Shown here piece by piece: positions 1,978-30,563 of a stretch of DNA of 32,992 nucleotides. The stretch comes from a virus, in IMG/VR virus record IMGVR_UViG_3300045988_150650; one strand, given 5' to 3'. Below the pieces are notes generated by a model, which saw only the letters and a list, made by a program, of their open reading frames with translations, was not told the DNA's origin and did no database searches. How positions within the stretch are numbered: the stretch's first letter is position 1; every line of letters starts with the position of its first letter. The position numbers and the translations under genes were made by a program.

Positions 1978-3399
1978 ATGAAAACAGCAGCCGCCTACAT
2001 ACGTGTATCTACAGATGAACAAACAGAACACAGCCCAGATTCGCAGCTGAAAGAGATAAGGAACTATGCTGATAGGCATGGCTTGATATTAGACCCGTCC
2101 CATATCTATATAGACGCAGGAGTCAGCGGGAGAAAAGCCAAAAAGCGGCCGCAGTTTCTGAAAATGATTGCGACGGCCAAAGGAGAGCCGTCGCCTTTTT
2201 CTGTTGTCTTAGTGTGGAAATTTTCGAGATTCGCACGTAACCAGGAGGAAAGTATTGTATATAAATCTCTCTTGAATCGTGAATGTGGAGTCGAAGTCGT
2301 TTCTATTACCGAGGAAACCCAGGACAAGATGTTCGGTTCGCTGGTAGAACGTATGATAGAATGGATGGATGAATTTTATTCTATCCGGCTGGGTGAGGAA
2401 GTCAGAACCAAAATGACCTATGTTGCCGAAACCGGCAAAATACAAACAGCCCCCTCCTTTGGATTTTCTAAAAATTCCGAAGGAGAATACGTTTTAAATC
2501 CGGACGAAGCCGAGTGGGTGCTGTTTATGGCCGAAAGTTTATTACAGAAAAAAAGTCTGCGCTGGATTGCGAAAGAATTGAACAGCCACGGGGTTCGAAC
2601 TCACCGGGGGAATAAATTTGAGCCCCGGACTGTAAGATACATTTTGAAAAATCTGACCAATACAGGCGCCTCGCATTGGACGCCAAACCGTGAAGATCAC
2701 GAAAATGAATACCACCCCTATTCCGATTCGACGATAGTAGTCGATGGCGTATGTGATCATATATATACCCGGGAATACTATGATAAAATTATTGCAGAAT
2801 TAGACACCCGGGCAGAAAATCGTAAAAAATATGATAAACCAGACACGGTAAAAAAACATTGGCTCTCAGGATTCCTGAAATGTTCTAACTGCGGGTCTAC
2901 TATGGTCTACTCTCTGGCCAACAAGGGTTTTCAATGTTACAAATATGGTAAATCTCTATGCGATGTTTCTCATTTTATTTCTGCGTCAAAAATTGAGGAA
3001 TCGGTAATTCAGGCCATTAAAAACGTAACGGTGAATGATAAATTCATTAAATCTGTAACCAAACCCCCAAAAAAAGCAGATCATAAAAAGGACATACGGC
3101 GGCTGGAGGGCATGCTTCAGCGGGCAAAAATCGCCTATATGGAAGAAATTGACACGCTGGAAGAATATGCGGCTAATAAAGAACGTATCGAAAAAGAAAT
3201 CTTAAAATTCAAAAAAGAAGATGAAAAGGCGACTGCCTATAGACCGGCGGAAGATGTTAGGCGGCAATTCGCTGAGATAGTCGACCTTTTATCCTCCGAT
3301 TCTGAAGACGCTATTAAAAGGGCGGCTCTGGGGGAAATCGTTGAAAGTATCGTATTTTCACGGCCTAATACTGCTATAAAAATTTATTTCCGCCTTTAA
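1978..3399 (+). CDS. Large serine recombinase (phage integrase)
   Basis: The N-terminal resolvase domain has the catalytic-serine context AAYIRVSTDEQ. It is followed by a recombinase domain, a Cys-rich zinc-ribbon (CSNCGS...CYKYGKSLC) and a C-terminal coiled coil. AGGAGG lies upstream of ATG 1978. Confidence 0.9.
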   Translation: MKTAAAYIRVSTDEQTEHSPDSQLKEIRNYADRHGLILDPSHIYIDAGVSGRKAKKRPQFLKMIATAKGEPSPFSVVLVWKFSRFARNQEESIVYKSLLNRECGVEVVSITEETQDKMFGSLVERMIEWMDEFYSIRLGEEVRTKMTYVAETGKIQTAPSFGFSKNSEGEYVLNPDEAEWVLFMAESLLQKKSLRWIAKELNSHGVRTHRGNKFEPRTVRYILKNLTNTGASHWTPNREDHENEYHPYSDSTIVVDGVCDHIYTREYYDKIIAELDTRAENRKKYDKPDTVKKHWLSGFLKCSNCGSTMVYSLANKGFQCYKYGKSLCDVSHFISASKIEESVIQAIKNVTVNDKFIKSVTKPPKKADHKKDIRRLEGMLQRAKIAYMEEIDTLEEYAANKERIEKEILKFKKEDEKATAYRPAEDVRRQFAEIVDLLSSDSEDAIKRAALGEIVESIVFSRPNTAIKIYFRL

Positions 3400-5840: not shown

Positions 5841-7235
5841 TTATTTCCAGCGGCCGAAGCAATGCACTTGCGCCGACAGGGTGCGTGTGTTTGCATCGCT
5901 GGTCGGTGTCCATATGTATATATTCAATAAGGACTTGGTATTTCCGGTTCCAACTGAAGCTCCTCCTATCCAGTTGCCAGATACTGTCACTATGCTGGTA
6001 GGCGTGCTGATGAAGAGCCCTGTGGGAAGTGTCGCTTTCGATATCACATAATATAGTCCTCCTTCTGTGCTGGATGTTTGATACGTCGCAACGCCTGAAC
6101 CCCAACACTCAGAGGTCCCACCGTTCCACTTTCTGTATGTCCATGCCCCGGAAGTCCCTTGTTCAACTATATAGTCGGCAGTATTCACATTATCCAGATG
6201 TAGCCTCCACGCGTCTCTGCCGTCTACGTCCGCGTTGCCGTTCCAGCCTACCTCATTACCGGCACGTACATACATCTGTCCGTACTGCTGTTCCAGCCAG
6301 ATCTGCTGTATGGTCAGGGCGCTACCTACTGTTTGTAACGCCTGAATCAGCGTTCCGTATCCTGATGGCTTGTTGATAATGGTCGACCCAATCCCATAAT
6401 AGCATGTGAAATTTCCAAATTCCGCCCATGCGTTCGGGGTATCAGCAGTAGGCCGCGTATTGTTGGGCAATTTTAACAGGTTTTGAATAGCGTTCGCCCT
6501 ATCTTCCGCACCGGTTCCGCCCTTTTCTATGGCTATGGGGAAACCGCCTACGGCTTCGGCTGCTTTTCTTGCTTCTTCGGCCGCTTCGTCGGCCCCTTCC
6601 GCTGCCGTAGTCGCTGATGTTGCCGCATTATTGGCTGCCGTAGCCGCTTGACTTGCCGCTTGGGCTGATGTATTAGCCTCCCTTGCCGCAGTATTAGCAG
6701 CCTCTGTGGCTATCTCCGCTCCGCCAATAGCTGTATTAGCGTCCTTGATCACATCGTCTACTCTGTCAGCTGCTTTATTGGCTGCCGCAGCTGCATTATT
6801 GGCCGCCGTAGTCGCCTCTCCCGACTCGGAAATGGCTTTCTGCGCCTCCTTTATCAGTTCATCTAACACCCCGAACTCATTGGACGACTCTATGGCGCTG
6901 TCTGATATCAGGTTTCTTTCAATTGCAAATTCCAATATGAATGAGACGAGAATATCGTCACCTATTACTACCTGAATCTGGCCGTTTTGCCTTCCTGATT
7001 CTGCGAACGTCTGCGCAGTAGGCTTTAACGTAACTTTTTGCCCCGACACCAGGCACTCGTTATATATCTCCAGTCCGCTTGGCTTTTTAAGATAAAATCT
7101 TGCGGTCGCCCCGGGCGGAACAATATAGTCTTTTATGTAAAATTCTATGGGAATTTCCGTTGAATACTGAACGTAGTGTATTATCTCGGCAGGATCCCAC
7201 TCGATTACACTTAATTTTATATTTTTACTGTCCAT
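5841..7235 (-). CDS. Tail fibre / receptor-binding protein with a BppU-like N-terminus and an Ala-rich coiled coil
   Basis: The N-terminus (KLSVIEWD...FYLKKPSG) resembles the baseplate upper protein Ig-like domain. It is followed by a long alanine-rich helical stretch, an IEKGGTGAEDRANA motif common in phage fibres, and a distinct C-terminal domain. It lies after Tal. Confidence 0.7.
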   Translation of the reverse strand: MDSKNIKLSVIEWDPAEIIHYVQYSTEIPIEFYIKDYIVPPGATARFYLKKPSGLEIYNECLVSGQKVTLKPTAQTFAESGRQNGQIQVVIGDDILVSFILEFAIERNLISDSAIESSNEFGVLDELIKEAQKAISESGEATTAANNAAAAANKAADRVDDVIKDANTAIGGAEIATEAANTAAREANTSAQAASQAATAANNAATSATTAAEGADEAAEEARKAAEAVGGFPIAIEKGGTGAEDRANAIQNLLKLPNNTRPTADTPNAWAEFGNFTCYYGIGSTIINKPSGYGTLIQALQTVGSALTIQQIWLEQQYGQMYVRAGNEVGWNGNADVDGRDAWRLHLDNVNTADYIVEQGTSGAWTYRKWNGGTSECWGSGVATYQTSSTEGGLYYVISKATLPTGLFISTPTSIVTVSGNWIGGASVGTGNTKSLLNIYIWTPTSDANTRTLSAQVHCFGRWK

Positions 7236-9001: not shown

Positions 9002-9693
9002 AGCGTCCTCCAGTTTGGAATGATCTGCAGACTGAATGGGTTATTTATCGTCAGATCATTCTCGCCTTCTTTTAGGTACAGCCCTTCATAATCGCCTGTC
9101 ACCTTCGTGTTTTGGATCGTACCGTCTTCCTTGTATGCGATCATCAGGTCTGTGTCTATAGTCAGGTTCCCTTCAACGTTTGCAGTCATTATATTACCAT
9201 TAACCCATAGCTTGCACTCCCCTGTTCCGGTCACTATATATATTGGTTTTGATAGTGAATACGGATTCAATATAGTGGGCGTGGTCTGTTCTATGGGTAT
9301 GGTTCCGGATTCAAAGTATGCATATGGTTCGCACAAAAAAGAGGCGGTGAACTCTCCCGCTTCTTTCACTGTCCTATATACAGTGTCTATGGACACATTT
9401 TTGCATTTATAAAAGTTTCCATTTTCGAATGGAAACTTTAACCGGCCACTACCTTTTAGCCACTTTTTAATCTGGGAGAACCTATAACCCCAATCTGTTG
9501 GTCTCGATATGAAGTTCATTTCAACGTCTATAGTTATGTCGTTATATGTACTATCTGAAATGATAAGGCTTCCATCTCTTCCCGGAATCTTTATGCTTTC
9601 GATAGACCTCTGCGGCACAGGCATGTCGGGGCGATATGCTATCTTTATCCCCAGCATACTGGCCGTACGCCCATTAAATTCTAAGTCATACAT
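8998..9693 (-). CDS. Distal tail protein (Dit, siphovirus tail component)
   Basis: MYDLEFNGRTASMLGIKI...IKIPGRDGSL is typical of the Sipho_tail family. ATG 9693 follows a perfect AGGAGG and overlaps the tape-measure stop by 8 nt. The longer track start has no RBS. Confidence 0.75.
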   Translation of the reverse strand: MYDLEFNGRTASMLGIKIAYRPDMPVPQRSIESIKIPGRDGSLIISDSTYNDITIDVEMNFISRPTDWGYRFSQIKKWLKGSGRLKFPFENGNFYKCKNVSIDTVYRTVKEAGEFTASFLCEPYAYFESGTIPIEQTTPTILNPYSLSKPIYIVTGTGECKLWVNGNIMTANVEGNLTIDTDLMIAYKEDGTIQNTKVTGDYEGLYLKEGENDLTINNPFSLQIIPNWRTL

Positions 9694-12600
9694 TCTTGCC
9701 TCCTGCTCTTGCAATATTTCTCTGCAGATTAGATATTCCCCTACTTGCTGTGTCAACTATGTAACCTTGAAACTCTTTGTTTCCAATCATGACGGTAACG
9801 TGGTTGTCCAGCTTCGTTTCATTGACCGGCGAAACTTTTATTGCATTATTATCCATGTTCTTTAAGGCGTTTGGTGAAAGTTGTGGTAATGCCATTTCAG
9901 CTCCCATCAGTGCCGTATTAAGCAGATCTTCTGAGGCTACTTCTACCATTTTAGACGACTGTTCGAGACCTACTGCAATACCCTCACCTATAGGCAGGCC
10001 GACTTTGTCACGCCATACTTTTGATGGGGAATTGACTTTTAGATGTGTCCTTACACCGCTCACTAAGTTGTCCATGATGTTAATGGCACCATTAAGTATA
10101 TTGGCTGAACTCATTCCCGAAAGAAAGCCTTCCGCTGCAGCTCTTCCTTCGGGCTCAAGGTCAACTTTCCCTGCTTTTTTTACATCTTCCATAGTCTGCT
10201 GTACAATAGGCGGAAGTTTGTCCAGTTCATCATCAGCTGCGCCTGTTAAAACTCTTATTGCGGTCTCAACATCTATATCACCCGATCGAATAGACGATGT
10301 TAGGGCGCTAACGAGATTTGATCCGTCAGCCCCCGCTTTATTTACAGCCTCTTGAAACGTTATGAGGGCGTTCAATTCATCCACTGTAGTAGGTATAATG
10401 TACTTGCCTGCGTTTAATGCCTCTACCAATCCATTTGGAAGATCTTCCTTTAACTTTCCGGCCTCTTCTAAAAGTGAATCAAATGCTCCTGTCTGCATTG
10501 CTGCTGCGTTTGAAGCTTTTGTCGCTTCCTCGCTATATGTTCTCTGGGCCTCGTTTAGGTCTCCAAGCTGTGAGTCACAATCTTCTATAGTTCCGGTAAG
10601 GGTTTCTATTGTGGCCTTATCCTGTTCGGTGACGTTTCTTCCTTCTTCTATTAGTTTATTCAGCTTTTCTTGCGCTTCGCTTCTTCTCGCCTCAAGCTCA
10701 GTCACTTTAAGCTGGCTTTCGGCGTACTTCTCTAACGCCTCTTGAGATTGTTTTAAAAACGCGTCCGCCAACGCCTCGTCTTGTCGGGCCTTTATTTTTT
10801 CCCTAATGGCGTCCGTTGTATCGCTCAACATATCGGCTTCTTCATCGTATGATACATTTAATCCTTCCACCGATTCGTTTAGCTGATCGACATACGTTTT
10901 CATTATTTGTCTTTGGGCAGCAGTTTTATCCTCGACTTTATTTAACTCTTCTATTTTTGATATATAGAACTCAGCTTTGTCCCCTTGCGAGGTTATCTCA
11001 TCTATCTGCTTCTCGTGTTCTGCGATTAAATCATTGGCGGCCTTGGTTTCGGCGTCAATACTTTCCACTATCTTCATAACAGCCGTAGCCGCACCAAGCG
11101 CAAGCGTCGCGGTAAGCGTCCATGGATTTTTTGACAATATGCCAAAAAGTCCTTTTGTGGCGCCCTCTGCTTTGCTCATATTCCCGCTCAAAATACCTAC
11201 AGCATTTGAAAGTTTCCCCGCTACTTTTAATGTGGGGGAAGCCGCAGCGCCTATCCCTATTATAGATAAGGTGATTTTTTTTGCTTCCGGCGACATTTTG
11301 CTGAATTTTTCTGTTAGGTTTTTCAACCAGTCAGCAAAACTTTTTACAATCGGTAGCAGCTCATCTCCCATATTCACAGCAACTTCTACCAGGGTGGCTT
11401 TGACTTGCTTTAGTTTTGCGGCTGTGGTCTCATATCTTTGTTGCGCTTCATCTTGCAAAGCGCTATTTTCGTCCCATGCGTTATTGGCTGTATCAATAGA
11501 ACGTGTCAGCAAATCGCCTGATTTTGATAGTGAAAGAAGCGTGTTTGACATGCGTACTTCTTTAATATCCATTTCGTCAAGTATGGCTATTGCACTCTTT
11601 CCGTTTCTTTCCGTATCATTTAATCCGGATATGAACGCCCCTATAGCTGCCACTGCATCTTTTTCGAAAGCCTTCTTAAACTCATCGACAGTCATATTGG
11701 CTACTTTCGCATAGTCTTCCAAGCTTGAAGAGCCCGTTTCTACAGCAACCTGTACTTGTTTAGTAAATTTTGAAAACGCACTTCCGCCCGCCTCTGCTTC
11801 AATTCCTACGGAGCTCATTGCTGTTGCTATGGCTAATATTTGTGGTTCCGTAAATCCGGCAAGGCTTCCGGTTGCGGCAAGTCGTTGGGACATCTCTACA
11901 ATGTCGCGTTCAGTTGTCGCAAAATTGTTTCCCAGCTCTACTATTACAGATCCAAGGCGGCTGTAATCCTCTGCGCTGGTTCCTGTGATATTGGCAAATT
12001 TAGCAAGAGCCGTGGCTGCTTCTTCGGCGCTTAGGTTGGTTGAATCGCCTAACATTACCATAGTTTCAGTGAAGCTCAGTATGTCATCTGTAGCAATTCC
12101 AAGTTGCCCTGCGGCGGCGGCTACACCTGCAATTTCTGTTGAAGAACTGGCTGTATTTTCTGCTAAATCTAATATTCCTTGTCTCAGCGTTTCAAACTGC
12201 TCGTTAGTGCCATCTACGGTTTTCTTAACGTCCGCCCAGGCAGACTCAAAATCTATAGCTGTCTTAGCTATACCAGCGCCTACTGCCGCAAAGCCTGCGG
12301 ACATATATTTGGTCTTGCCGGCGGCTGCTTCAAGCTTGCTTCCCATTTCAGTAGCTTTTATAGAAAACTCTGCCAGCTTGGCGCTTCCGCTGCCAACGGT
12401 GTCCTTTAGGCTTTTTAGTTTGTTTTCGGTTTCTGCAATTTCACGTTGCAAGGCATCATATTTATCTTGCCCCAGATCCCCCGATTCAAGTTGTTTCTGT
12501 GCCTCCTCTGATGCTTTTTTGAGTTCTTGTAATCTACCTTCGGTTTCTTCTATAGTCTTACTCAAATAGCTTTGCTTTTGGCTTAAAAGCTCCGTATTGG

Positions 12601-12745
12601 TAGGATCCAACTTTAAAAGTCTGTTGATATCTTTTAACGCAGTATTGCTCTCTCGTATTTTGGCGTCAACCTTACTCAGTGATTGGGACAGACCAGTTGT
12701 GTCCCCATCTATTTTTATGGTGATTCCCTTAATTCTGTTTGCCAT
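9686..12745 (-). CDS. Tail tape measure protein
   Basis: This 1019-aa protein is helical and Ala/Glu-rich. Its core resembles the TP901-family TMP region (AIDFESAWADVKKTVDG...). It lies directly downstream of the G/GT chaperone pair. Confidence 0.9.
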   Translation of the reverse strand: MANRIKGITIKIDGDTTGLSQSLSKVDAKIRESNTALKDINRLLKLDPTNTELLSQKQSYLSKTIEETEGRLQELKKASEEAQKQLESGDLGQDKYDALQREIAETENKLKSLKDTVGSGSAKLAEFSIKATEMGSKLEAAAGKTKYMSAGFAAVGAGIAKTAIDFESAWADVKKTVDGTNEQFETLRQGILDLAENTASSSTEIAGVAAAAGQLGIATDDILSFTETMVMLGDSTNLSAEEAATALAKFANITGTSAEDYSRLGSVIVELGNNFATTERDIVEMSQRLAATGSLAGFTEPQILAIATAMSSVGIEAEAGGSAFSKFTKQVQVAVETGSSSLEDYAKVANMTVDEFKKAFEKDAVAAIGAFISGLNDTERNGKSAIAILDEMDIKEVRMSNTLLSLSKSGDLLTRSIDTANNAWDENSALQDEAQQRYETTAAKLKQVKATLVEVAVNMGDELLPIVKSFADWLKNLTEKFSKMSPEAKKITLSIIGIGAAASPTLKVAGKLSNAVGILSGNMSKAEGATKGLFGILSKNPWTLTATLALGAATAVMKIVESIDAETKAANDLIAEHEKQIDEITSQGDKAEFYISKIEELNKVEDKTAAQRQIMKTYVDQLNESVEGLNVSYDEEADMLSDTTDAIREKIKARQDEALADAFLKQSQEALEKYAESQLKVTELEARRSEAQEKLNKLIEEGRNVTEQDKATIETLTGTIEDCDSQLGDLNEAQRTYSEEATKASNAAAMQTGAFDSLLEEAGKLKEDLPNGLVEALNAGKYIIPTTVDELNALITFQEAVNKAGADGSNLVSALTSSIRSGDIDVETAIRVLTGAADDELDKLPPIVQQTMEDVKKAGKVDLEPEGRAAAEGFLSGMSSANILNGAINIMDNLVSGVRTHLKVNSPSKVWRDKVGLPIGEGIAVGLEQSSKMVEVASEDLLNTALMGAEMALPQLSPNALKNMDNNAIKVSPVNETKLDNHVTVMIGNKEFQGYIVDTASRGISNLQRNIARAGGKNV

Positions 12746-18555: not shown

Positions 18556-20247
18556 CTAATATGTGTAAACTCCTATTGTTGGTATTGCGGCCATTTGATG
18601 AATTGGGATTTCTTCTTCTATCACCATTGAAGCCACAAGCGCCATGAATGGGTCTGTTTTTCTGCTCTTGCCTTCGATTTTGCCATATATAAAATTGCCT
18701 ACATCGGCGTCAGCCGCTTTTCCTATGGCTCGCCCGGCCCGTATTAGTTTTGTGTTATTAGTAGCCCATCTAAGCACGGGGTTGTTTCCCCAAACATAAT
18801 AATGGTTCGCGAAGCAGCTTTCGATGACCGGCGCAATTTTCATTATGTCTGACGGCCGCACCAACTTGAGATTTTTTCTTTCTTTGGGACTGTACCCTAT
18901 TTCTGAAAGATATTTTGAAAGGAGCGTATACCTATAGTCATCTATTGCCACTTTTTTTATATCGTATATCTCACCTTGCTGCTTCAGGTAATCCGCAACA
19001 ATTTTAGGGTGAATTTCAACATCATCTACTAATGTCAGCAAGCCTTTCTCTGCCCACTCTTTCCATGGAACTTTTAACCGCCATAAATCTTTTGACTGTA
19101 GGCATAGCCACGAGTGGTTTATATCATATCGCAAATCTCCATCTCTAAAATGTAGATTTATGGATAGCATGTCGGTTGTTTTCGTATAGTCCACTCCGGC
19201 AACACAATTTCTTCCACTTAAATCTATAAGTTCTTTCTTGGTGGCGATAATATTAGCCCAAACTGTAACTACAGTTTCGGTTGCAGATTCAGGCCAGTTC
19301 ATTCTTTTTGTCATGAATGACGTTAATGTATTCGGGCGCTCTTTCCATCTCAAATATTCTTTTCTTGTTTCTTTAAGCAGATGTGGAAAATATGGTAAAG
19401 ATGGATTTGCCTTAGCCCAATTTCTTTCATCATGCACTTCTTCCTTGTCATCTATTCGGCATATAAAATATAACTTCCCATTGTCGGGAGCTTCTCCGTT
19501 TAGCACTTCCTCAGCTTCCGCCAGTTCATCATCTAATGGACCTTCTCTAACATCTCCCTGCGTGGTATACATGCTCGAGCGGGGGTGCTTTTTCTTTCCC
19601 AGCCCGGTAGTGAATACTTCTATATTTTTGTAATCTTGATATTGATGGACTTCGTTGAATATGATTATACCGGATCTCATACCATCACGACCCTTAGGGT
19701 TATTAGTTCTACCCCGTATTACAGCGCCTGTTTTTATACACCTGATTTTTTCTTTTGTCCAATAAAAATATTTTTTTAGCTTTTTCTCCCACCTTATATC
19801 TTCAAAGGCCTCTATGATGTCGAGCACAGGCCGCATGGCTTGTTCTTCATTGTTGGCACATATGTCTACATCATATTTTTTTATTTTATTATATGGCGAG
19901 GAAAGACACTCACTTTCCCACGCTATAGTCCCATCTTTACCTGCGCCTCTTCCGATTAAACAAAAAAGATCCGGCCATCTTGGCTCGCCGGTTTTTTGAT
20001 AATAAGTACAATCATGTAGTCCTACGACAAACTTTTGCCATGGTAAAAGTTTGTCCCATGGGAAATATCCTGCCATTTTTATATAATGTTCAAACTGTTC
20101 ATCATCTGTGTAAATATCTTCTTCCTCGAACGCTTTTTTAACGAGTTTTACAAGTTTTTTTTGCTCTTGGCATACACGAAAAGGCTCTTTTTCAACTATA
20201 TCAATCCATTCTTGAATATGCGGGTTTATTTTAGAGCTCGTCGTCAT
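18556..20247 (-). CDS. terL: Terminase large subunit
   Basis: A ~560-aa Terminase_1-like protein with a Walker A-like region (LIGRGAGKDG). ATG 20247 overlaps the terS end. Confidence 0.9.
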   Translation of the reverse strand: MTTSSKINPHIQEWIDIVEKEPFRVCQEQKKLVKLVKKAFEEEDIYTDDEQFEHYIKMAGYFPWDKLLPWQKFVVGLHDCTYYQKTGEPRWPDLFCLIGRGAGKDGTIAWESECLSSPYNKIKKYDVDICANNEEQAMRPVLDIIEAFEDIRWEKKLKKYFYWTKEKIRCIKTGAVIRGRTNNPKGRDGMRSGIIIFNEVHQYQDYKNIEVFTTGLGKKKHPRSSMYTTQGDVREGPLDDELAEAEEVLNGEAPDNGKLYFICRIDDKEEVHDERNWAKANPSLPYFPHLLKETRKEYLRWKERPNTLTSFMTKRMNWPESATETVVTVWANIIATKKELIDLSGRNCVAGVDYTKTTDMLSINLHFRDGDLRYDINHSWLCLQSKDLWRLKVPWKEWAEKGLLTLVDDVEIHPKIVADYLKQQGEIYDIKKVAIDDYRYTLLSKYLSEIGYSPKERKNLKLVRPSDIMKIAPVIESCFANHYYVWGNNPVLRWATNNTKLIRAGRAIGKAADADVGNFIYGKIEGKSRKTDPFMALVASMVIEEEIPIHQMAAIPTIGVYTY

Positions 20248-20557
20248 CACTCATCTCACCTGCCGCTGGTTTAATTTCGAGGTTGTCCAAAATTTTTAAC
20301 ATTTGGGCATTGACCCTGATGACTTGGTCAACCGAATCATTCTTTTTTACTCCTCTTTGCCCTCCTCCATTGTCATAAATTACCGACACCCCTCGCGCTT
20401 CTATATCCTCAAGAAGTGCGTTCTTAGTGTCCCAAAGTCGCATGTAATCTTCTATTAAGTCCTCAAAAAAACGGCCAAAAGTACCGTTTCTTTCAAGCTG
20501 ATCGTATAAGTCCTTTTTTATTTCCTTCCTTATAGTCATTTTTGATTTACGGCCCAT
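20231..20557 (-). CDS. terS: Terminase small subunit, P27 family
   Basis: MGRKSKMTI...DYMRLWDTKNALLEDIEARGV...KKNDSVDQVIRVNAQMLKIL matches the P27-family pattern. ATG 20557 follows GGGAGGGGG. Confidence 0.8.
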   Translation of the reverse strand: MGRKSKMTIRKEIKKDLYDQLERNGTFGRFFEDLIEDYMRLWDTKNALLEDIEARGVSVIYDNGGGQRGVKKNDSVDQVIRVNAQMLKILDNLEIKPAAGEMSDDDEL

Positions 20558-22680: not shown

Positions 22681-23490
22681 TTAAAGAATGAGCTGCTCCT
22701 CGTCGTATGTAGGTTTGTAAAATTCTCGGCCGGATATTATTTCGCCAAAAGGCCATATTTTATATTTTATAGGTTTGCCAAGAGCCACCATTGTGTATTC
22801 TAAATGTTCTATGCCTGTTACCGGATGTTCAAAACGGCGGCAAAGTTCTTTTGGTATGTAATAGCCCTTTAAGGGCGCTGGGTCTTCAAATAATTCCTCT
22901 GGGTCTATTTCTACTCTTACAATTTCCGGCCGCTTTATGTTTTTACTTGTGGTGTATCTTTTTTTATACGGGTTTTCTCCCGTCCTGAATGTCTTTTGGG
23001 TTTCTTTCAGCAGATACGCGGCTAATTTTGAATAGTCACCGGTTCCGTCTAATGGCGTCGCTTTTACGAAGCCGTATTCCCATAAATCGGTGAGCAATTT
23101 TATATCCGAAACGTTTATCACGACGTGGTGGTGAAGTCTTTTATGTTCACATTCGATTACATGAACATATGACAGTTCTTTATCTTCTTTTCTCATGGCG
23201 GCCCTTAAGGCTCTTATAAATTTGTCGTAGGTTTTCATGGCTGTATTTTTATCCGCCTCGTTTTTATATGTTAAGACCACATGCAGGTCACCCTTTTTGA
23301 AATTCGCGTTTAAAATGGCCGTTAAGTTTCTGAGAGCTAACCTGTCATTATTTTTTCTCACTTGCTCGGGCGTTATGTTTTTTCTTTCTCCTCTTTTGCC
23401 CTTGTGATTTCCTGATGTGCTTTTTAGGCTGCACATTATTGTCTTTCCCGCTATGCAGATATCTTTTACAGCTTTTATCTTGAATTTCAT
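22681..23490 (-). CDS. HUH-superfamily Rep-like (rolling-circle initiator-like) protein
   Basis: Three ordered motifs are present: DLHVVLTY (motif I-like), KRLHHHVVIN (HUH) and DYSKLAAYLLKE (catalytic Tyr, YxxK-like). ATG 23490 follows GGGAGA, and the track start at 23520 is a TTG. Confidence 0.5.
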   Translation of the reverse strand: MKFKIKAVKDICIAGKTIMCSLKSTSGNHKGKRGERKNITPEQVRKNNDRLALRNLTAILNANFKKGDLHVVLTYKNEADKNTAMKTYDKFIRALRAAMRKEDKELSYVHVIECEHKRLHHHVVINVSDIKLLTDLWEYGFVKATPLDGTGDYSKLAAYLLKETQKTFRTGENPYKKRYTTSKNIKRPEIVRVEIDPEELFEDPAPLKGYYIPKELCRRFEHPVTGIEHLEYTMVALGKPIKYKIWPFGEIISGREFYKPTYDEEQLIL

Positions 23491-23599
23491 TTTTCTCCCG
23501 CGAGTTAATACTCTAATCAAGTTTCAATGCTCATGCCGAGCGCCGTTTTGTCTATATATATAATGTAAGGATTTTTTACGGCGGAAGGATGTTCCGCCG

Positions 23600-24424: not shown

Positions 24425-24838
24425 TTATTGCTCAAGTAATAACTGCCCGCTAATATAGACTTGATAGAGCGTCTGCCCTTCCTTGTTAGTCAAATATGGT
24501 AAAAACGCTTCTTGCAATGTCGCGTTTCCTGCCTCAATGAATGCCATTTGGGCAAGAACCCAATCACGCACATTCCTCCATGCGGTCTTTTTTGCCTGTT
24601 CCATATCAGCTTTAATTTTTTGTCTTTTAAAAACCTCGCAGACCCCGTCTACATTTGCGGGAAGTTGGAACCCCATAAAACCTCTCTCGGTTTCTATTGC
24701 GAAAGCAAGGCCTTTTGGTTCTCCTTTTTCGTCATAATCAATCATCACTTTCTTGGCTCCGCCTTTAGCCAGAGCTGCTTGTATTTCACCTATACTCTCA
24801 AGTGGGTGTTTAGTCGTTGTATAATTTTTAATCGCCAT
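24425..24838 (-). CDS. Hypothetical protein
   Basis: This 137-aa ORF is tightly packed in the operon. I recognise no motif. Confidence 0.6.
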   Translation of the reverse strand: MAIKNYTTTKHPLESIGEIQAALAKGGAKKVMIDYDEKGEPKGLAFAIETERGFMGFQLPANVDGVCEVFKRQKIKADMEQAKKTAWRNVRDWVLAQMAFIEAGNATLQEAFLPYLTNKEGQTLYQVYISGQLLLEQ

Positions 24839-25166
24839 TTTCTTCCTCTCTCATATCTGTGAAACAACCCGGACAAAAGTTTAAAAAGTTGTCATTGCAT
24901 CTTCCTCCACATACTGAGCAGTATATTGCGTTGTATTCTGTCCGTTCGTCTACTCTTATCGTGTGTCGTTCGTCCATATCGTTTATTTCAGCTTGTCCCC
25001 TTGCGTTTTCCCCAATCATGGCATTTAAAATGCACATTGCTATTTCTAAATTGTTATAAACAGCCTTAAGTGACGCTTCATCTGAGCTGATTTCTTTTTT
25101 ATTTATTTCCTCGGCCGGAATCCACGGCTCCGGTAATGGTTTCCATGCGATTACAATATCGTCCAT
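24828..25166 (-). CDS. Hypothetical protein with a C-terminal zinc-ribbon (CSVCGG...CPGC)
   Basis: The track ORF begins inside the radical-SAM gene. The first ATG after that gene's stop is 25166 (MDDIVIAWKPLPEPW...). The RBS is weak, so the start is uncertain. Confidence 0.5.
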   Translation of the reverse strand: MDDIVIAWKPLPEPWIPAEEINKKEISSDEASLKAVYNNLEIAMCILNAMIGENARGQAEINDMDERHTIRVDERTEYNAIYCSVCGGRCNDNFLNFCPGCFTDMREEENGD

Positions 25167-25179
25167 AAACCTGCAATCA

Positions 25180-25983
25180 TTAAACCAATGGCCGCGGCCG
25201 CTGCCACTGACGAGCAAATCTATTCCATTCGACCGAATATTCCGTCTTTTTGTCTGAAAAGTCTCGATATAGCTGCATAAAAGGCATTGCTCCGGCCTCG
25301 TAGATAGTTCTGCATCTTGCCTCATCTTTGTCCATATCCTTTCCACAGGACAACACATAGCAATTTATTTTATTTCTGTTAAACCCTGCTTTTCGCAGCT
25401 TTTCACACGCTCTTTTAAACGCCGGTATTGTGTTGTCAGTATCGCACGCGAGCCACAGTTCCTTTATTCTTAGGCCTGTTATAGCATTTACAAAATGGTC
25501 GTCTATTAAATCCGCCTCTAACCCACCTTTAAAGCATATTCCTTTTTGGGTTTTTAACATTTCAAATACCTTGTCCTTATGCCGCCGTGAGGCTTGAAGA
25601 AAATTATTATCCTGTATGACATTTCCTGGATATATTGGTAATTCCTTCAGCTTGCCCTCAAGTTTTGGGACTATGCACCACGGACAACTGTTATTGCAAC
25701 CACGGGTTGTAAATATGATATTTGATTTAATGTATAGCCCCGGCATGAAATCCTCTGATGGGCTGCCGAAAGCAACGCCGCCGAGCTTTACGGGTTTATC
25801 AGTTGCCACCTCCCACTGATAGGCAAGTTCTCCACAATATTCCTTGTCCCATGTAAATGTACATGATATATGTACCTCGTCATGTTCAGGGATAAAGGGT
25901 TTCAATGGAGGCATTCCGATAAAGACATAATCGTCAATCGGTGTATAACTTGTTCTTTTAGGGAATACCCTTATTATTCTCAT
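25180..25983 (-). CDS. Radical SAM domain protein of unknown specificity
   Basis: The canonical CX3CX2C cluster motif is present in FTTRGCNNSCPWCIV, preceded by a ~95-aa N-terminal domain. GAGAGGAA lies upstream of ATG 25983. Confidence 0.7.
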   Translation of the reverse strand: MRIIRVFPKRTSYTPIDDYVFIGMPPLKPFIPEHDEVHISCTFTWDKEYCGELAYQWEVATDKPVKLGGVAFGSPSEDFMPGLYIKSNIIFTTRGCNNSCPWCIVPKLEGKLKELPIYPGNVIQDNNFLQASRRHKDKVFEMLKTQKGICFKGGLEADLIDDHFVNAITGLRIKELWLACDTDNTIPAFKRACEKLRKAGFNRNKINCYVLSCGKDMDKDEARCRTIYEAGAMPFMQLYRDFSDKKTEYSVEWNRFARQWQRPRPLV

Positions 25984-26025
25984 AATTTCCTCTCTGATTT
26001 ATAAACCGTGTTTACTATCACACCT

Positions 26026-26841
26026 TCAGTAATCTAACCACCATGCCATAACTTCCTCTGGTGTTTTCCATTTAGTTGTTTTCCCTGCTTTCGCTCTTTC
26101 TTTCAACATTCGCTCAAATGCTCTCAGATAGTTACGTTTATATTTCGGATATTTTTCAAGCTCTTTGGCGGCATTTCGATTCATTGGGCAGCCTATACAG
26201 CCTAAACGTGTATATCCATTGTCATATAGGCAGCAATATGGGATTTCGTATCTATGTATAAATTCCCATATATCCTCATCTTCCCAATCGATTATGGGAT
26301 TTAAGATGTGTTTTCCTTTGGTCGGACAAAATCGTGCCATTTCCGCATTGTCAGGGTTGTCTGGGTCGGTTCGCACGCGCCAACCTGTTTTGGTGCCGTC
26401 TGAGATTTCCAAGCCTGCCCTATTGTTTCGGCGATTGGCTGATTCCGCCCACCTAACTCCCGTTACAGTGAACCGTCCCTCACCGCCACACTCCTTTAAA
26501 AATTCGCAGCAGTACCGCATTATTCGTGTCGGCGGCATTTTCTTTTTTGGGATTAAGTTCCACATTGTTATCCTGCTGCCGTCTTTATATCGTGGGTACT
26601 CAATCTCCACATTTGAGTGATGTTCTCGTATAAAATATATCAGCTCTGGCGGGTCTACTGACGTATGGTTATAATGCGCGTCATATTTTACGCCTGCCAT
26701 GTCTGCCAGCGCCTTTATGACGACGCTGTCTTTGCCTCCGGAGAAGGCTAAATAATATCCTTCAAGGGGTTCAAATGTTTGCAGTCGTTTTATGGCTACC
26801 TCTACCCTATTCAATCCGGCGATATTTAATTGTTCTAACAT
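26026..26841 (-). CDS. PAPS-reductase-family PP-loop ATP pyrophosphatase (phage type)
   Basis: The PP-loop is FSGGKDS. The C-terminal part reads ILNPIIDWEDEDIWEFIHRYEIPYCCLYDNGYTRLGCIGCP, typical of the PAPS_reduct family (CysH/DndC-like). Its start overlaps the methyltransferase end. Confidence 0.8.
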   Translation of the reverse strand: MLEQLNIAGLNRVEVAIKRLQTFEPLEGYYLAFSGGKDSVVIKALADMAGVKYDAHYNHTSVDPPELIYFIREHHSNVEIEYPRYKDGSRITMWNLIPKKKMPPTRIMRYCCEFLKECGGEGRFTVTGVRWAESANRRNNRAGLEISDGTKTGWRVRTDPDNPDNAEMARFCPTKGKHILNPIIDWEDEDIWEFIHRYEIPYCCLYDNGYTRLGCIGCPMNRNAAKELEKYPKYKRNYLRAFERMLKERAKAGKTTKWKTPEEVMAWWLDY

Positions 26842-28004
26842 AATCTCCTCGCTATTTCGTAAATCACATTTACAGTCACGCTGTTTCCCGCCTGTTTATA
26901 TAGCTGGCTGTCACTGTTTACGGCAGCTGCTCTCTCAAAATATTCGTCTGGGAACCCCTGGAGGCGAAAGCACTCCTTCGGCGTTAATTTTCTGATTTTT
27001 TGCTTTTCCTCTTCAAATACGCCATGTCTGTCTTTCGTAGTTAATGTAAACATTGACTCTTCGTTTCCTTTTATTCGTCTGCCATTTTGTTTTTTATTCA
27101 AAAATTCTACTGATGACACAGGATAGATAACGCCCGCGTCATGCTTATTGGCTTTTAATGTGCGGCTTATATTAGCGATTGGCGGTCTTTTAAATTTCTC
27201 GCTGGTTTCTGTATATATACCATATGCAATATATGGTTATCTGCCTCCGCCGCTACCCTGGTTTAAACACGGGCTCAGTCCGTTTATATCGTAAACTCTT
27301 CCCTGATTGGGATTATCTCGTTTCTTGGTGGGCATACAGTTGCCTATTTGTTTAATTTTCGCATGCTGTTTATTTTCAACAACATATGTTCCGACTGCTG
27401 TCCCTTCGCCCGTCCTTGTTGTAATGGTTCCAGCTTCTTGTCTTTGTAGGTTATCAGCCTCTTTATTGCCGTTTCTGAAAGGAAATACTTTTCGGAAACT
27501 TCGTCCTCTAAGATGTCCGATAATAAACACTCTTTCCCGGTTCTGGGGCACTCCGAAGTTTTTGCTGTTACATACCTGCCATTCGACATCGTACCCCAGT
27601 TCATCCATCGTTCTGATGATAGTTCCGAATGTTCGCCCCCCCTCGTGGCTGAGAAGGCCCTTGACATTTTCGGCGAATAATATATCAGGCTTTCTGACTT
27701 TAGCCAGCCGCATGACTTCAAAAAAGAGAGTGCCTCTTGTATCTTCGAAACCTCTTCGCTTTCCAGCAATACTGAAAGCCTGGCATGGAAATCCGAAGCA
27801 GTACACTTCTGCTTTTGGCAAATCTCCGGGGTTAACTCTTCTAATGTCATCTGCATACCATTCACTCTCCTTTGGACTGTGCATTGCTATGTATGATTTA
27901 TTTGCGAATTTATCTATTTCGCAGTGGCCGACGCATTCATGGCCGGCCATTTCCATTCCTAACCTGAATCCTCCGATTCCGGAGAAAAAATCTATAAATC
28001 TCAT
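26835..28004 (-). pseudogene. DNA (cytosine-5)-methyltransferase reading frame interrupted by one in-frame TAA (27239..27237) inside the variable/TRD region
   Basis: The upstream part (28004..27240) carries motifs I FSGIGG, IV GFPCQAFS, VI ENV and VIII QNRER. The downstream part (27236..26835, same frame) carries IX/X RKLTPKECFRLQGFPD and QAGNSVTVNV. The two track ORFs (27237..28088 and 26835..27119) are in the same frame and differ only by the TAA. It could be a dead gene or a two-subunit enzyme. Confidence 0.75.
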
Positions 28005-28965: not shown

Positions 28966-29193
28966 ATGTTTCCAAAACGCTTAAATTCAACTCGTAAATC
29001 TAAGGGGATTACTGCACAACATATGGCGAACCATCTTAATATGCAAATTCGGGGTTACCGGAAATATGAAAGTGGTGACACCTCTCCTTCTCTTGATACT
29101 CTTATTTTAATAGCTGATATCTTAGATGTGTCTATCGACTGGCTTCTCGGCCGGGATGAGTGGCTGAAATCTCACGGAGTTTACGTTGATTAA
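28966..29193 (+). CDS. Small XRE-family HTH regulator (controller-like), plus strand
   Basis: MFPKRLNSTRKSKGITAQHMANHLNMQIRGYRKYESGDTSPSLDTLILIADILDVSIDWLLGRD is a classic XRE HTH. AGGAGG lies upstream. It is divergent from 28447..28854. Confidence 0.8.
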   Translation: MFPKRLNSTRKSKGITAQHMANHLNMQIRGYRKYESGDTSPSLDTLILIADILDVSIDWLLGRDEWLKSHGVYVD

Positions 29194-29353
29194 CTCCTGT
29201 GATATCTTCAAGGGTATCCCAGACAAAAATGCTCCCAAGCATTTTACCAGCCTCAATTTTTTTATAATATCTCAGGCTAATGCCCAGCTTATCGGCCATT
29301 GCTTGCTGTGTTAGCCCGGCCTCCTGCCGGGCTTTTTTTAGGTTACTCCTCAT
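29132..29353 (-). CDS. Small XRE-family HTH regulator
   Basis: LKKARQEAGLTQQAMADKLGISLRYYKKIEAG is HTH-like. GAGGAG lies upstream. Its 3' end overlaps the convergent 28966..29193 gene by 62 nt. Confidence 0.7.
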   Translation of the reverse strand: MRSNLKKARQEAGLTQQAMADKLGISLRYYKKIEAGKMLGSIFVWDTLEDITGVNQRKLREISATHPGREASR

Positions 29354-29617: not shown

Positions 29618-29973
29618 TATCCTTGTAGCTCCTCTTGTTTTGTTTTAGTCCTTGTAAACTTTATCTGTCCCTTGCTATTTTCTCCAACTTTGTATTTTAC
29701 TTCTCCGACGTTTAAAGTCAGCTGGTTGATTTGGCCTCCTAAAATCATCATTCCCGCAGCTCTTAAAATATTCATGATATCTTCGTCTTTATTTTCTACG
29801 ATTAGTTCTGCATTTTTTTCGACCGCCTCTTTTTTCTTTTTGGCGTCTGCACCTGTACAATCACATTCTTCGCTTGCCAATCGATCTGCCGCCTCTTGTG
29901 TTTTTGCCAAAACCGGTATTATCTGACCACAATATCTGCATACGCCTTCATATGTCATTATTTCGTCTTTCAT
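29617..29973 (-). CDS. Hypothetical protein (CxxC near the N-terminus)
   Basis: This 118-aa ORF is coupled to its neighbours. Confidence 0.55.
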   Translation of the reverse strand: MKDEIMTYEGVCRYCGQIIPVLAKTQEAADRLASEECDCTGADAKKKKEAVEKNAELIVENKDEDIMNILRAAGMMILGGQINQLTLNVGEVKYKVGENSKGQIKFTRTKTKQEELQG

Positions 29974-30563
29974 ATCGTCATCTCCTCTTTTAATATCATT
30001 ACGCTTTGGGTGTATTCGCTTCTTTCTCCTATAGATCTATTAAAATCCGCCTTACTTTTTCCGGCATTATAGGCCGTCACTGCCCACTCTATGTCGTTTT
30101 CTTCATTTATTAGTTCCGCCAGTAGGTCTATTCCTATGGTCACATTCTGATATGGGTCTAATAGGTCGGTTATTCCCAGTCTGTCCATGCGCTGCCGGTG
30201 GTGCATGGGCTGAATCTGCATTAGTCCTATGCTATTGCCATTGTCTCCCACCGCCGCTGGATCATAGCCTGATTCTTGTCCTATGACGGCCAGAACCAGG
30301 GACATATCTACTCCGTAGGTCTCGCATAAATCATTGATATGTATCTGCAAATCAGCGTCCAAAGGAACGTCATATATCTTGCTTGGCTCTTTCTGTTCCA
30401 TATCCTGGTTGATTTCTACAACGGCGCCCTCAGCTTTTGGATTTCCTGAAAATCCGATCATGACCAGCAATACTGCGCCTATTATCACCAATGTCCATAG
30501 GCTCATGAATACGTTTTTTATATGCCACAAAAAACTTTTTTCTCTGATCTTATACTTTTTCAT
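29970..30563 (-). CDS. Membrane-anchored lytic transglycosylase (SLT domain)
   Basis: The N-terminal TM segment is FMSLWTLVIIGAVLLVMIGF. SLT motifs are GQESGYDP, GLMQIQ and AYNAG. Confidence 0.8.
   Translation of the reverse strand: MKKYKIREKSFLWHIKNVFMSLWTLVIIGAVLLVMIGFSGNPKAEGAVVEINQDMEQKEPSKIYDVPLDADLQIHINDLCETYGVDMSLVLAVIGQESGYDPAAVGDNGNSIGLMQIQPMHHRQRMDRLGITDLLDPYQNVTIGIDLLAELINEENDIEWAVTAYNAGKSKADFNRSIGERSEYTQSVMILKEEMTI

Follow-up and report, generated by a model that had tools for sequence, protein, structure and literature searches.

The literature on phage phosphoadenosine phosphosulfate (PAPS) reductases is split between sulfur auxiliary metabolism, the reading adopted in several virome papers (PMC13369170, PMC12323421, bioRxiv 10.64898/2026.02.18.706556), and anti-defence, which has been proposed for Aca-regulated phage PAPS reductases (PMC13551039). 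In a vibriophage, a protein that joins a PAPS domain to Dam allows escape from Dnd (Piel et al.; bioRxiv 10.1101/2021.05.05.442762; cited in PMC13551039). Here we analyse a PAPS-reductase-like gene and the radical S-adenosylmethionine (rSAM) gene that follows it in a viral DNA of 32,992 nucleotides, IMG/VR record IMGVR_UViG_3300045988_150650 (the window, by which we mean this whole stretch). Both genes lie on the minus strand, downstream of a C5 cytosine DNA methyltransferase gene.

The closest described relatives of the PAPS-like protein are those of PHROG 424, such as 'cysH' of Clostridium phage LPCPA58 and the 'PAPS reductase-like domain protein' of Methanosarcina virus MetMV. They share its domain, its length of ~270 aa and its early, DNA-metabolism gene setting at 46-47% aa identity, with no essential difference, and the window contributes one more member. 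The rSAM protein belongs in the same manner to PHROG 9298 (7e-25), whose members, among them Bacteroides phage BI-TP1 gp92 and proteins of LoVEphage, Marinitoga camini virus 1 and Methanomassiliicoccales virus vir215, are stand-alone proteins from phages of anaerobes. These share 25-32% aa identity with it and do not differ from it in kind. Both genes are thus additional members of known phage families. The vibriophage fusion resembles the window in that a phage PAPS_reduct domain is tied to a DNA methyltransferase, the start of the window gene overlapping the stop of a C5 methyltransferase, and in that the window gene also occupies a variable anti-defence region. The likeness is one of domain and gene arrangement. 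The fusion is a 479-aa protein with an N6-adenine methylase from a Vibrio podovirus, whereas the window has a separate gene, a C5 methylase neighbour with an internal stop and an anaerobic Firmicute host.

The initial annotation had proposed that the PAPS-like and rSAM genes, beside the methyltransferase, constitute one pathway for nucleic-acid modification or counter-defence. This claim failed, the nearest homologues being solitary and the adjacency traceable to insertion of a cassette. We consider it probable that a strictly anaerobic Firmicute of the gut is the host of the window, a temperate prophage of the siphovirus type, and that the two are separate, individually mobile accessory genes lying side by side in a variable early-gene hot spot. 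Each would work alone with factors supplied by the host.

Co-occurrence of the two families and origin of their adjacency

Loci were collected around relatives of each gene, and every open reading frame (ORF) in them was scored with hidden Markov models (HMMs) for which 120 homologues per family were used. A PAPS-like ORF lay within 6 kb of rSAM in 3/39 viral loci (L021, Bacteroides phage BI-TP1 and, as a 51-aa remnant, L039) and within 8 kb in 3/67 genome loci, two of these being weak matches and the third the same remnant, in L188. In the opposite direction, rSAM was found near the PAPS-like gene in 4/80 viral loci (L048, L085, L107 and L110), of which L048 is the same contig as L021. The test of the pathway had been set beforehand as co-occurrence beyond chance, and these counts did not reveal it; for either family, the other is missing from about 94-95% of loci. 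When the rSAM loci are combined, 6/106 (about 6%) contain a PAPS-like gene, close to the ~4% of caudoviruses found to carry a PAPS reductase in one honey-bee gut phage survey (PMC13369170).

The nearest homologues give the same picture. PAPS-like homologues at 88-93% aa identity (P0122, P0123 and P0124; 25 contigs read) belong to related phages without rSAM, where a PDDEXK gene, an N4/N6 methylase or a small ORF lies upstream, and no PAPS gene accompanies the rSAM homologues with 91-93% aa identity (L004, L005 and L018). The intact pair is repeated in L198 only, a 1.8-kb metagenome fragment of essentially the same phage, and literature searches for a phage system combining PAPS and rSAM proteins returned nothing relevant. 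Compared with solitary copies, the ratio of non-synonymous to synonymous substitution rates (dN/dS) was 0.034-0.042 for the window rSAM gene and 0.032-0.065 for the window PAPS-like gene. Such values point to strong purifying selection on both genes across paired and solitary copies, which argues that each protein does its job without the other. In the window, two accessory genes under independent selection have come to lie together in a lineage-specific manner.

The origin of this juxtaposition is recorded in the DNA between the genes. Three-way DNA alignment and a BLASTN map identified the 42-nt spacer that separates them (25984..26025, minus strand) as a degenerate copy of the methyltransferase gene's final ~40 nt, including the ribosome-binding site (GAGAGGAAA) and ATG. 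The spacer aligns both to the 3' end of the window methyltransferase and to the methyltransferase-to-rSAM junction of L004, a locus whose flanks share 97-98.6% nt identity with the window on both sides. L004 lacks the segment equivalent to window 26838-26006; there the stop of the methyltransferase and the start of rSAM overlap, and the rSAM allele has only 84% identity to that of the window. Because the spacer matches both the methyltransferase end and the L004 junction, the PAPS-like gene is an inserted cassette. In the older arrangement the C5 methyltransferase was followed directly by rSAM with stop and start overlapping, and the cassette recombined into this pre-existing junction, leaving the spacer as an insertion scar.

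The initial annotation had also noted that the end of the methyltransferase overlaps the start of the PAPS-like gene, as indeed it does: the TAG (26837-26835) and the ATG (26841-26839) read together as ATGTTAG. Translational coupling, which had been proposed for the PAPS-like and rSAM genes, holds for this overlap and not for those two genes, with their 42-nt spacer and the separate ribosome-binding site of rSAM. Furthermore, the overlap is uninformative on any functional link, because rSAM in L004 uses the same junction; it is a generic docking site and not a sign of coupling to the PAPS-like gene. More generally, gene overlap or close packing in a phage accessory hot spot is no evidence of a pathway, since whichever cassette sits next uses the same methyltransferase junction.

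Several observations weigh against the independence of the two genes. In L085 and L107 rSAM lies immediately upstream of the PAPS-like gene and in L110 one gene intervenes, and L021 and Bacteroides phage BI-TP1 carry both within 3 kb. L039 and L188 (99.6% identical; Firmicutes bacterium CAG:145) retain the PAPS-like gene as a 51-aa in-frame remnant and rSAM as fragments (L039 5803-6262), products of separate internal deletions in both genes that would be expected too if these were functionally linked. Neither gene was found in a background of 42 phages related by large terminase (TerL) and with at least 7 kb of upstream sequence (0/42), which implies low base rates in a sample too small to separate a rate of 5% from the base rate, so that a modest enrichment of the pair is possible; the late-activator-gene background comprised 5 loci only. 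Finally, the functional assignments of both proteins are drawn from motifs, fold and context only.

With adjacency in a few lineages, double loss in a sister prophage and a plausible sulfur-insertion chemistry, there is some room for cooperation, and we allow a slim chance that the two proteins cooperate on occasion. An equally slim chance attaches to a facultative two-enzyme pathway, in which the PP-loop/[4Fe-4S] protein would activate a nucleic acid and supply sulfur, in the way of TtuA or DndC, and rSAM would complete a C-S or C-C modification of phage DNA or host RNA, the pair being a functional module when together. This is favored by the methylthiotransferases that are the nearest structural relatives of rSAM and by the Fe-S ligands of the PAPS-like protein, which resemble those of sulfur-transferring PP-loop enzymes; rSAM, however, lacks both the auxiliary cluster that handles sulfur in methylthiotransferases and a TRAM domain, and no two-domain fusion appears among the representatives. 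The recurrence of adjacency in at least two further lineages, in reversed order (L085 and L107), the deletion of both genes in L039/L188 and their absence from the 42 TerL-related phages likewise speak for it, and are to be set against the solitary state of about 94-95% of loci of each family, the equally strong purifying selection on nearest homologues that are solitary, and the secondary insertion that created the adjacency in the window phage.

The adjacent genes of L085 (4204-5983) and L107 (5063-6813) belong to another gut-phage lineage, with a gene order that is the reverse of the window's. They pair a distant rSAM member (HMM score about 207 bits) with a PAPS-like gene that is about 42% identical.

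Gene remnants also bear on the idea that the block consists of eroding, non-functional morons in a domesticated or defective prophage. Sister prophages do hold remnants of the PAPS-like gene (51 aa) and of rSAM (59-68 aa, including the first 68 aa in L036-L038 at 6001-6207), the window methyltransferase has an in-frame stop, and the window rSAM has lost the conserved C-terminal ~15 aa of its family. Nevertheless, both ORFs are full-length across all conserved core motifs, dN/dS against relatives is 0.03-0.065, an independent metagenome contig (L198) carries the pair intact, and the structural and lysis gene set of the prophage is complete. Decay is therefore an unlikely account of the block, and we retain the reading of two separately selected accessory genes.

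The PAPS-like protein

The PAPS-like gene (26026..26841, minus strand) encodes a stand-alone PP-loop ATP pyrophosphatase of 271 aa, and its assignment to the PAPS_reduct family in the initial annotation was upheld. It matches Pfam PAPS_reduct (PF01507) at 72.9 bits (gathering score 22.5) as well as PHROG 424, and carries SGGKDS (residues 34-39) and GCIGCP. Within its family SGGKDS, C111-C112, C172, C203 and C215-x2-C218 are invariant, the CC and CxxC columns being judged on 46 sequences. The CxxC aligns to the [4Fe-4S] ligands (GCEPC) of the Pseudomonas adenosine phosphosulfate (APS) reductase 2goy, and from the CC...CxxC ligands we infer a site of the APS-reductase type in this protein. Its AlphaFold2 model, with a mean predicted local distance difference test (pLDDT) score of 77, is least confident at the Cys-bearing loops 131-136, 172-175 and 213-219, which would fit a cluster that the model does not contain. 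Foldseek placed the model within the general PP-loop/PAPS-reductase fold, with FAD synthase, CysD, APS reductase, TtuA and LarE among the matches.

In sulfonucleotide reductases, a C-terminal catalytic Cys in an ECGLH-type tail forms the enzyme-thiosulfonate intermediate. The window protein has no Cys beyond C218, its tail ending ...KWKTPEEVMAWWLDY. With this residue absent, the protein is not CysH and is predicted to be unable to reduce PAPS or APS. The NCBIfam scores are also far under their cut-offs (TIGR00434 cysH, 36.9 bits against 165; TIGR02055 APS reductase, 38.7 against 235), and identity with CysH was rejected, notwithstanding the shared PAPS_reduct fold and the placement of CC...CxxC as the [4Fe-4S] ligands of APS reductase. 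Consequently, a true auxiliary metabolic cysH that boosts assimilatory sulfate reduction by the host, with rSAM unrelated to it, is a very improbable identity for this gene, despite the Pfam and PHROG names and the virome papers cited at the outset. It is further opposed by the distribution of the subfamily, which occurs beside DNA-metabolism genes in viruses of methanogens, Altiarchaeum, Clostridium and Bacteroides, and by the experimental anti-Dnd role of a phage PAPS domain (bioRxiv 10.1101/2021.05.05.442762).

DndC, SspD and BrxP offer a second comparison. These proteins likewise combine a PP-loop with a Cys-ligated Fe-S site, and their profiles show weak similarity to the window protein: among the PADLOC models, BrxP matched at 1e-10 over residues 180-247 only of the window protein, the profile having 779 positions, and DndC gave a marginal E of 0.0055-0.0097 (about 13 bits). 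They differ in size, the window protein having 271 aa against about 470-780 profile positions, and their partner genes (DndA/IscS, DndD and DndE; SspA-C; the BREX core) have no counterpart in the window.

By analogy with DndC, SspD and TtuA, the PAPS-like protein would adenylate its substrate and then thiolate or otherwise substitute it. The most likely chemistry is an ATP-dependent adenylation followed by an Fe-S-assisted substitution, probably thiolation, of a nucleic acid. The protein is probably an enzyme of the DndC kind, acting on nucleic acid or in anti-defence, the most likely role, by comparison with the vibriophage PAPS-Dam fusion that acts against Dnd, being counter-defence on a nucleic-acid substrate. 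The family is extensive in phages and prophages, with more than 7,800 clusters at 90% identity and E<=0.001 among the matches listed, and members in isolated phages of Clostridium, Ruminococcus and Bacteroides, in Methanosarcina virus MetMV and in an Altiarchaeum virus. A phage 'PAPS reductase' subfamily that retains Fe-S ligands and lacks the catalytic Cys of CysH argues against routine annotation as a sulfur auxiliary gene, and its Cys pattern speaks for a DndC-like or counter-defence role.

The radical-SAM protein

The rSAM gene (25180..25983, minus strand) encodes a stand-alone enzyme of 267 aa whose match in PHROG 9298 is named 'radical SAM domain protein' (7e-25). Its recognition as a radical-SAM gene was correct: the cluster motif RGCNNSCPWC is C96-x3-C100-x2-C103, and these cysteines, together with the GGE-like SAM motif G153-G154-L155, are kept in 21-22 of 22 diverse members, as expected of the radical-SAM superfamily, at a Pfam Radical_SAM (PF04055) score of 23.7 bits that is below the gathering score of 29.5. 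Residues conserved across the 22 members are C96/C100/C103, IQDNN (123-127), H135, GGL (153-155), D181, C208, R223 and RxWxRP (258-263). C208 is the sole Cys outside CxxxCxxC that is conserved across the wide family. In the N-terminal domain C41 alone is invariant among close relatives and no Cys reaches 85% in the wide family; no auxiliary-cluster set of Cys is conserved across the 22 members.

The ~95-aa N-terminal domain had been described as of unknown function; it is not without a recognisable fold. In the AlphaFold2 model (pLDDT 89.4, predicted TM-score 0.84) about residues 1-70 form a small alpha/beta domain ahead of a partial TIM barrel, and the protein as a whole is nearest to methylthiotransferase and B12-like-domain enzymes. 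The best Foldseek hits in PDB and BFVD were the MtaB methylthiotransferase (TMq 0.59), a giant-virus methylthiotransferase, AprD4 and B12-like-domain rSAM proteins; viperin was a weak structural match at rank 16 (TMq 0.46). Structure prediction, which had been suggested for both proteins, gave the PP-loop and radical-SAM fold classes; for rSAM the Foldseek searches gave a fold class and no functional assignment. Sequence and profile searches of PDB matched the MiaB cluster loop alone (E 0.05-0.12), and the rSAM cluster loop, RGCNNSCPWCIVP, is nearly identical to that of MiaB.

MiaB, MtaB, RimO and AprD4 resemble the window protein in the succession of an N-terminal alpha/beta domain and an rSAM core, and MiaB also in the loop RGCNNxCxxC(I/V)VP. 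MiaB, MtaB and RimO differ from it in having an auxiliary Cys triad, a TRAM domain and about 430-450 aa, whereas the rSAM proteins end after the barrel at 267-281 aa, with TRAM absent. A MiaB/RimO/MtaB methylthiotransferase was considered and rejected, there being no three-Cys UPF0004 site, no TRAM domain and a TIGR00089 score of 16.6 bits against a cut-off of 251. Models for QueE, the NrdG activase, viperin-like proteins and DUF5131/Gp37-Gp68 in Pfam, NCBIfam and PADLOC gave no match at E<=0.01.

From the predicted structure, rSAM appears to be a minimal single-cluster radical-SAM enzyme with the two-domain layout of methylthiotransferases and B12-like-domain enzymes. It would generate a 5'-deoxyadenosyl radical to act on its substrate, for which our best guess, because of the neighbour genes, is a nucleic acid or nucleotide. 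It is doubtful, though conceivable, that the pair jointly installs a thio or methylthio mark on phage DNA, or that PHROG 9298 alone represents a new radical-based nucleic-acid-modifying or anti-defence enzyme; literature searches for phage-encoded rSAM anti-defence genes returned nothing relevant.

Clustering of the family at 90% identity gives 1,261 clusters; of the representatives at 50% identity, 202 fall below 1e-30 and 721 below 1e-10. The best 150 representatives are nearly all stand-alone proteins of 270-300 aa, among which no informative domain fusion was found, the longer proteins having no Pfam domains save for one intein/HNH insertion. This is P0365 (550 aa), in which an intein with an HNH homing endonuclease interrupts the protein near the CxxxCxxC loop. 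NCBI labels family members 'hypothetical protein'. Where hosts are named they are Oscillospiraceae, Acutalibacteraceae, Acetobacterium, Selenomonadaceae, Cloacimonadota, Aminicenantes, Omnitrophota and Atribacterota, all of which we take to be strict anaerobes; an Aenigmatarchaeota contig and a Methanomassiliicoccales virus add to these. As far as its hosts are named, PHROG 9298, with more than 700 clusters at 50% identity, is confined to viruses and prophages found in strict anaerobes that range from Firmicutes to archaea. As a widespread, strongly conserved and uncharacterised family of anaerobe phages, it is a reasonable biochemical target.

The window and L004 copies are without the conserved C-terminal ~15 residues of the family: the window protein ends ...WQRPRPLV* (25180-25195), and the family consensus reads ...WQRPAAIxAHMEKGTDF.... 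In L039 (6113-6998) the consensus tail is kept and is followed by an extra gene (MTNFEKYKDEIL...) that the window does not have, and a gene of the same family follows the PAPS-like gene in L197 and L200.

Methyltransferase, hot spot and prophage setting

The methyltransferase runs from ATG 28004 to TAG 26837-26835 with one in-frame TAA at 27239-27237. The identification as a C5 enzyme stood, through its match to PF00145, with the proviso that the reading frame is interrupted. The N-terminal part (27237..28004, minus strand; PF00145 4.6e-66, profile positions 1-203) spans motifs I-VIII and enters the target-recognition region; the C-terminal part (26835..27236, minus strand; 4.9e-17, profile positions 243-322), in the same frame and as listed beginning at GTG 27119, holds motifs IX-X (QAGNSV). 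The TAA falls inside the target-recognition region and is identical, with its context, in L004, L039 and L188. In an alignment with the read-through translation, the intact 320-aa homologue of L199 has a different and shorter recognition region. The split gene could encode a two-subunit enzyme, be read through or be a pseudogene. Separate alpha and beta methyltransferase subunits are annotated in phage MM1 records.

In the neighbour censuses of both families, the most frequent genes are several classes of DNA methyltransferase, ParB_N, Lar, DUF551, RusA, SSB, G39P, DUF4406 and Mom, and no conserved partner gene emerged for either. Such a gene content is typical of an anti-restriction and DNA-metabolism hot spot, which lies here in the variable early-gene region, between replication genes on one side and the late-gene activator on the other. 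The setting described initially is accordingly confirmed, relatives carrying DNA methyltransferases, Lar, DUF551, Mom and RusA at this position. C5 methyltransferases made up 7/86 neighbours of rSAM in viral loci and 2/98 in genome loci; a specific partnership between rSAM and methyltransferase was rejected, since the enrichment in viral loci was not repeated in genome loci. The top rSAM neighbour in genome loci was ParB_N (10/98), apparently mostly in Acetobacterium-type prophage loci, as judged by locus names only. A protein of 163-281 aa that is often found beside rSAM (L036 5124-5969 and relatives) has C5-methylase-like motifs (FEQSGTF..., FFPC(V/T)RFE) and no Pfam match, and may represent a divergent methyltransferase family.

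In the window, the methyltransferase, PAPS-like and rSAM genes, all on the minus strand, form a block in the early/accessory operon between the gene for an SLT-like protein (29970-30563, PHROG match) and that for Rep. The 73-aa and 135-aa genes that precede the methyltransferase are the same in L039. The Zn-ribbon gene and small ORFs noted downstream of rSAM are indeed present. After a gap of 13 nt comes the Zn-ribbon gene (24828..25166, minus strand), encoding 112 aa with N-terminus MDDIVIAWKPLPEPW and a C-terminal CSVCGG...CPGC, identified from its sequence, a Pfam search giving no match. It recurs in L004, L018 and L039, and lies outside any conserved unit with the genes upstream. The controller that had been attributed to the operon was found upstream as a small HTH_3 (XRE-type) gene (29132..29353, minus strand). 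A second predicted HTH_3 ORF (28966-29193, plus strand) converges on it; the Pfam E-values for the two are 2.7e-10 and 2.2e-11. Lying just upstream of the operon (28966-29353), the two putative ORFs share 62 nt on opposite strands. Promoter and terminator scans gave a signal no better than chance.

The prophage genes found in the window include those for integrase, terminase, portal, major head protein, tape measure and Rep. PHROG matches located the serine integrase at 1978-3399, the tape measure at 9686-12745 and the large terminase at 18556-20250, as well as an Abi-like gene, endolysin, major head protein and portal. All ORFs of at least 250 aa are assigned (integrase, Abi, lysin, tail, head, packaging, Rep, methyltransferase, PAPS-like and rSAM), and no sufficiently large ORF in the window is left over for DpdA, QueC/D/E, FolE or DndA/D/E, in agreement with the earlier statement that the gene set matches neither the 7-deazaguanine nor the Dnd systems. 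Rep (22681-23520; Pfam REP_ORF2-G2P, PHROG 3584) is a replication initiator of the rolling-circle type in a tailed prophage, and recurs beside rSAM in several related loci.

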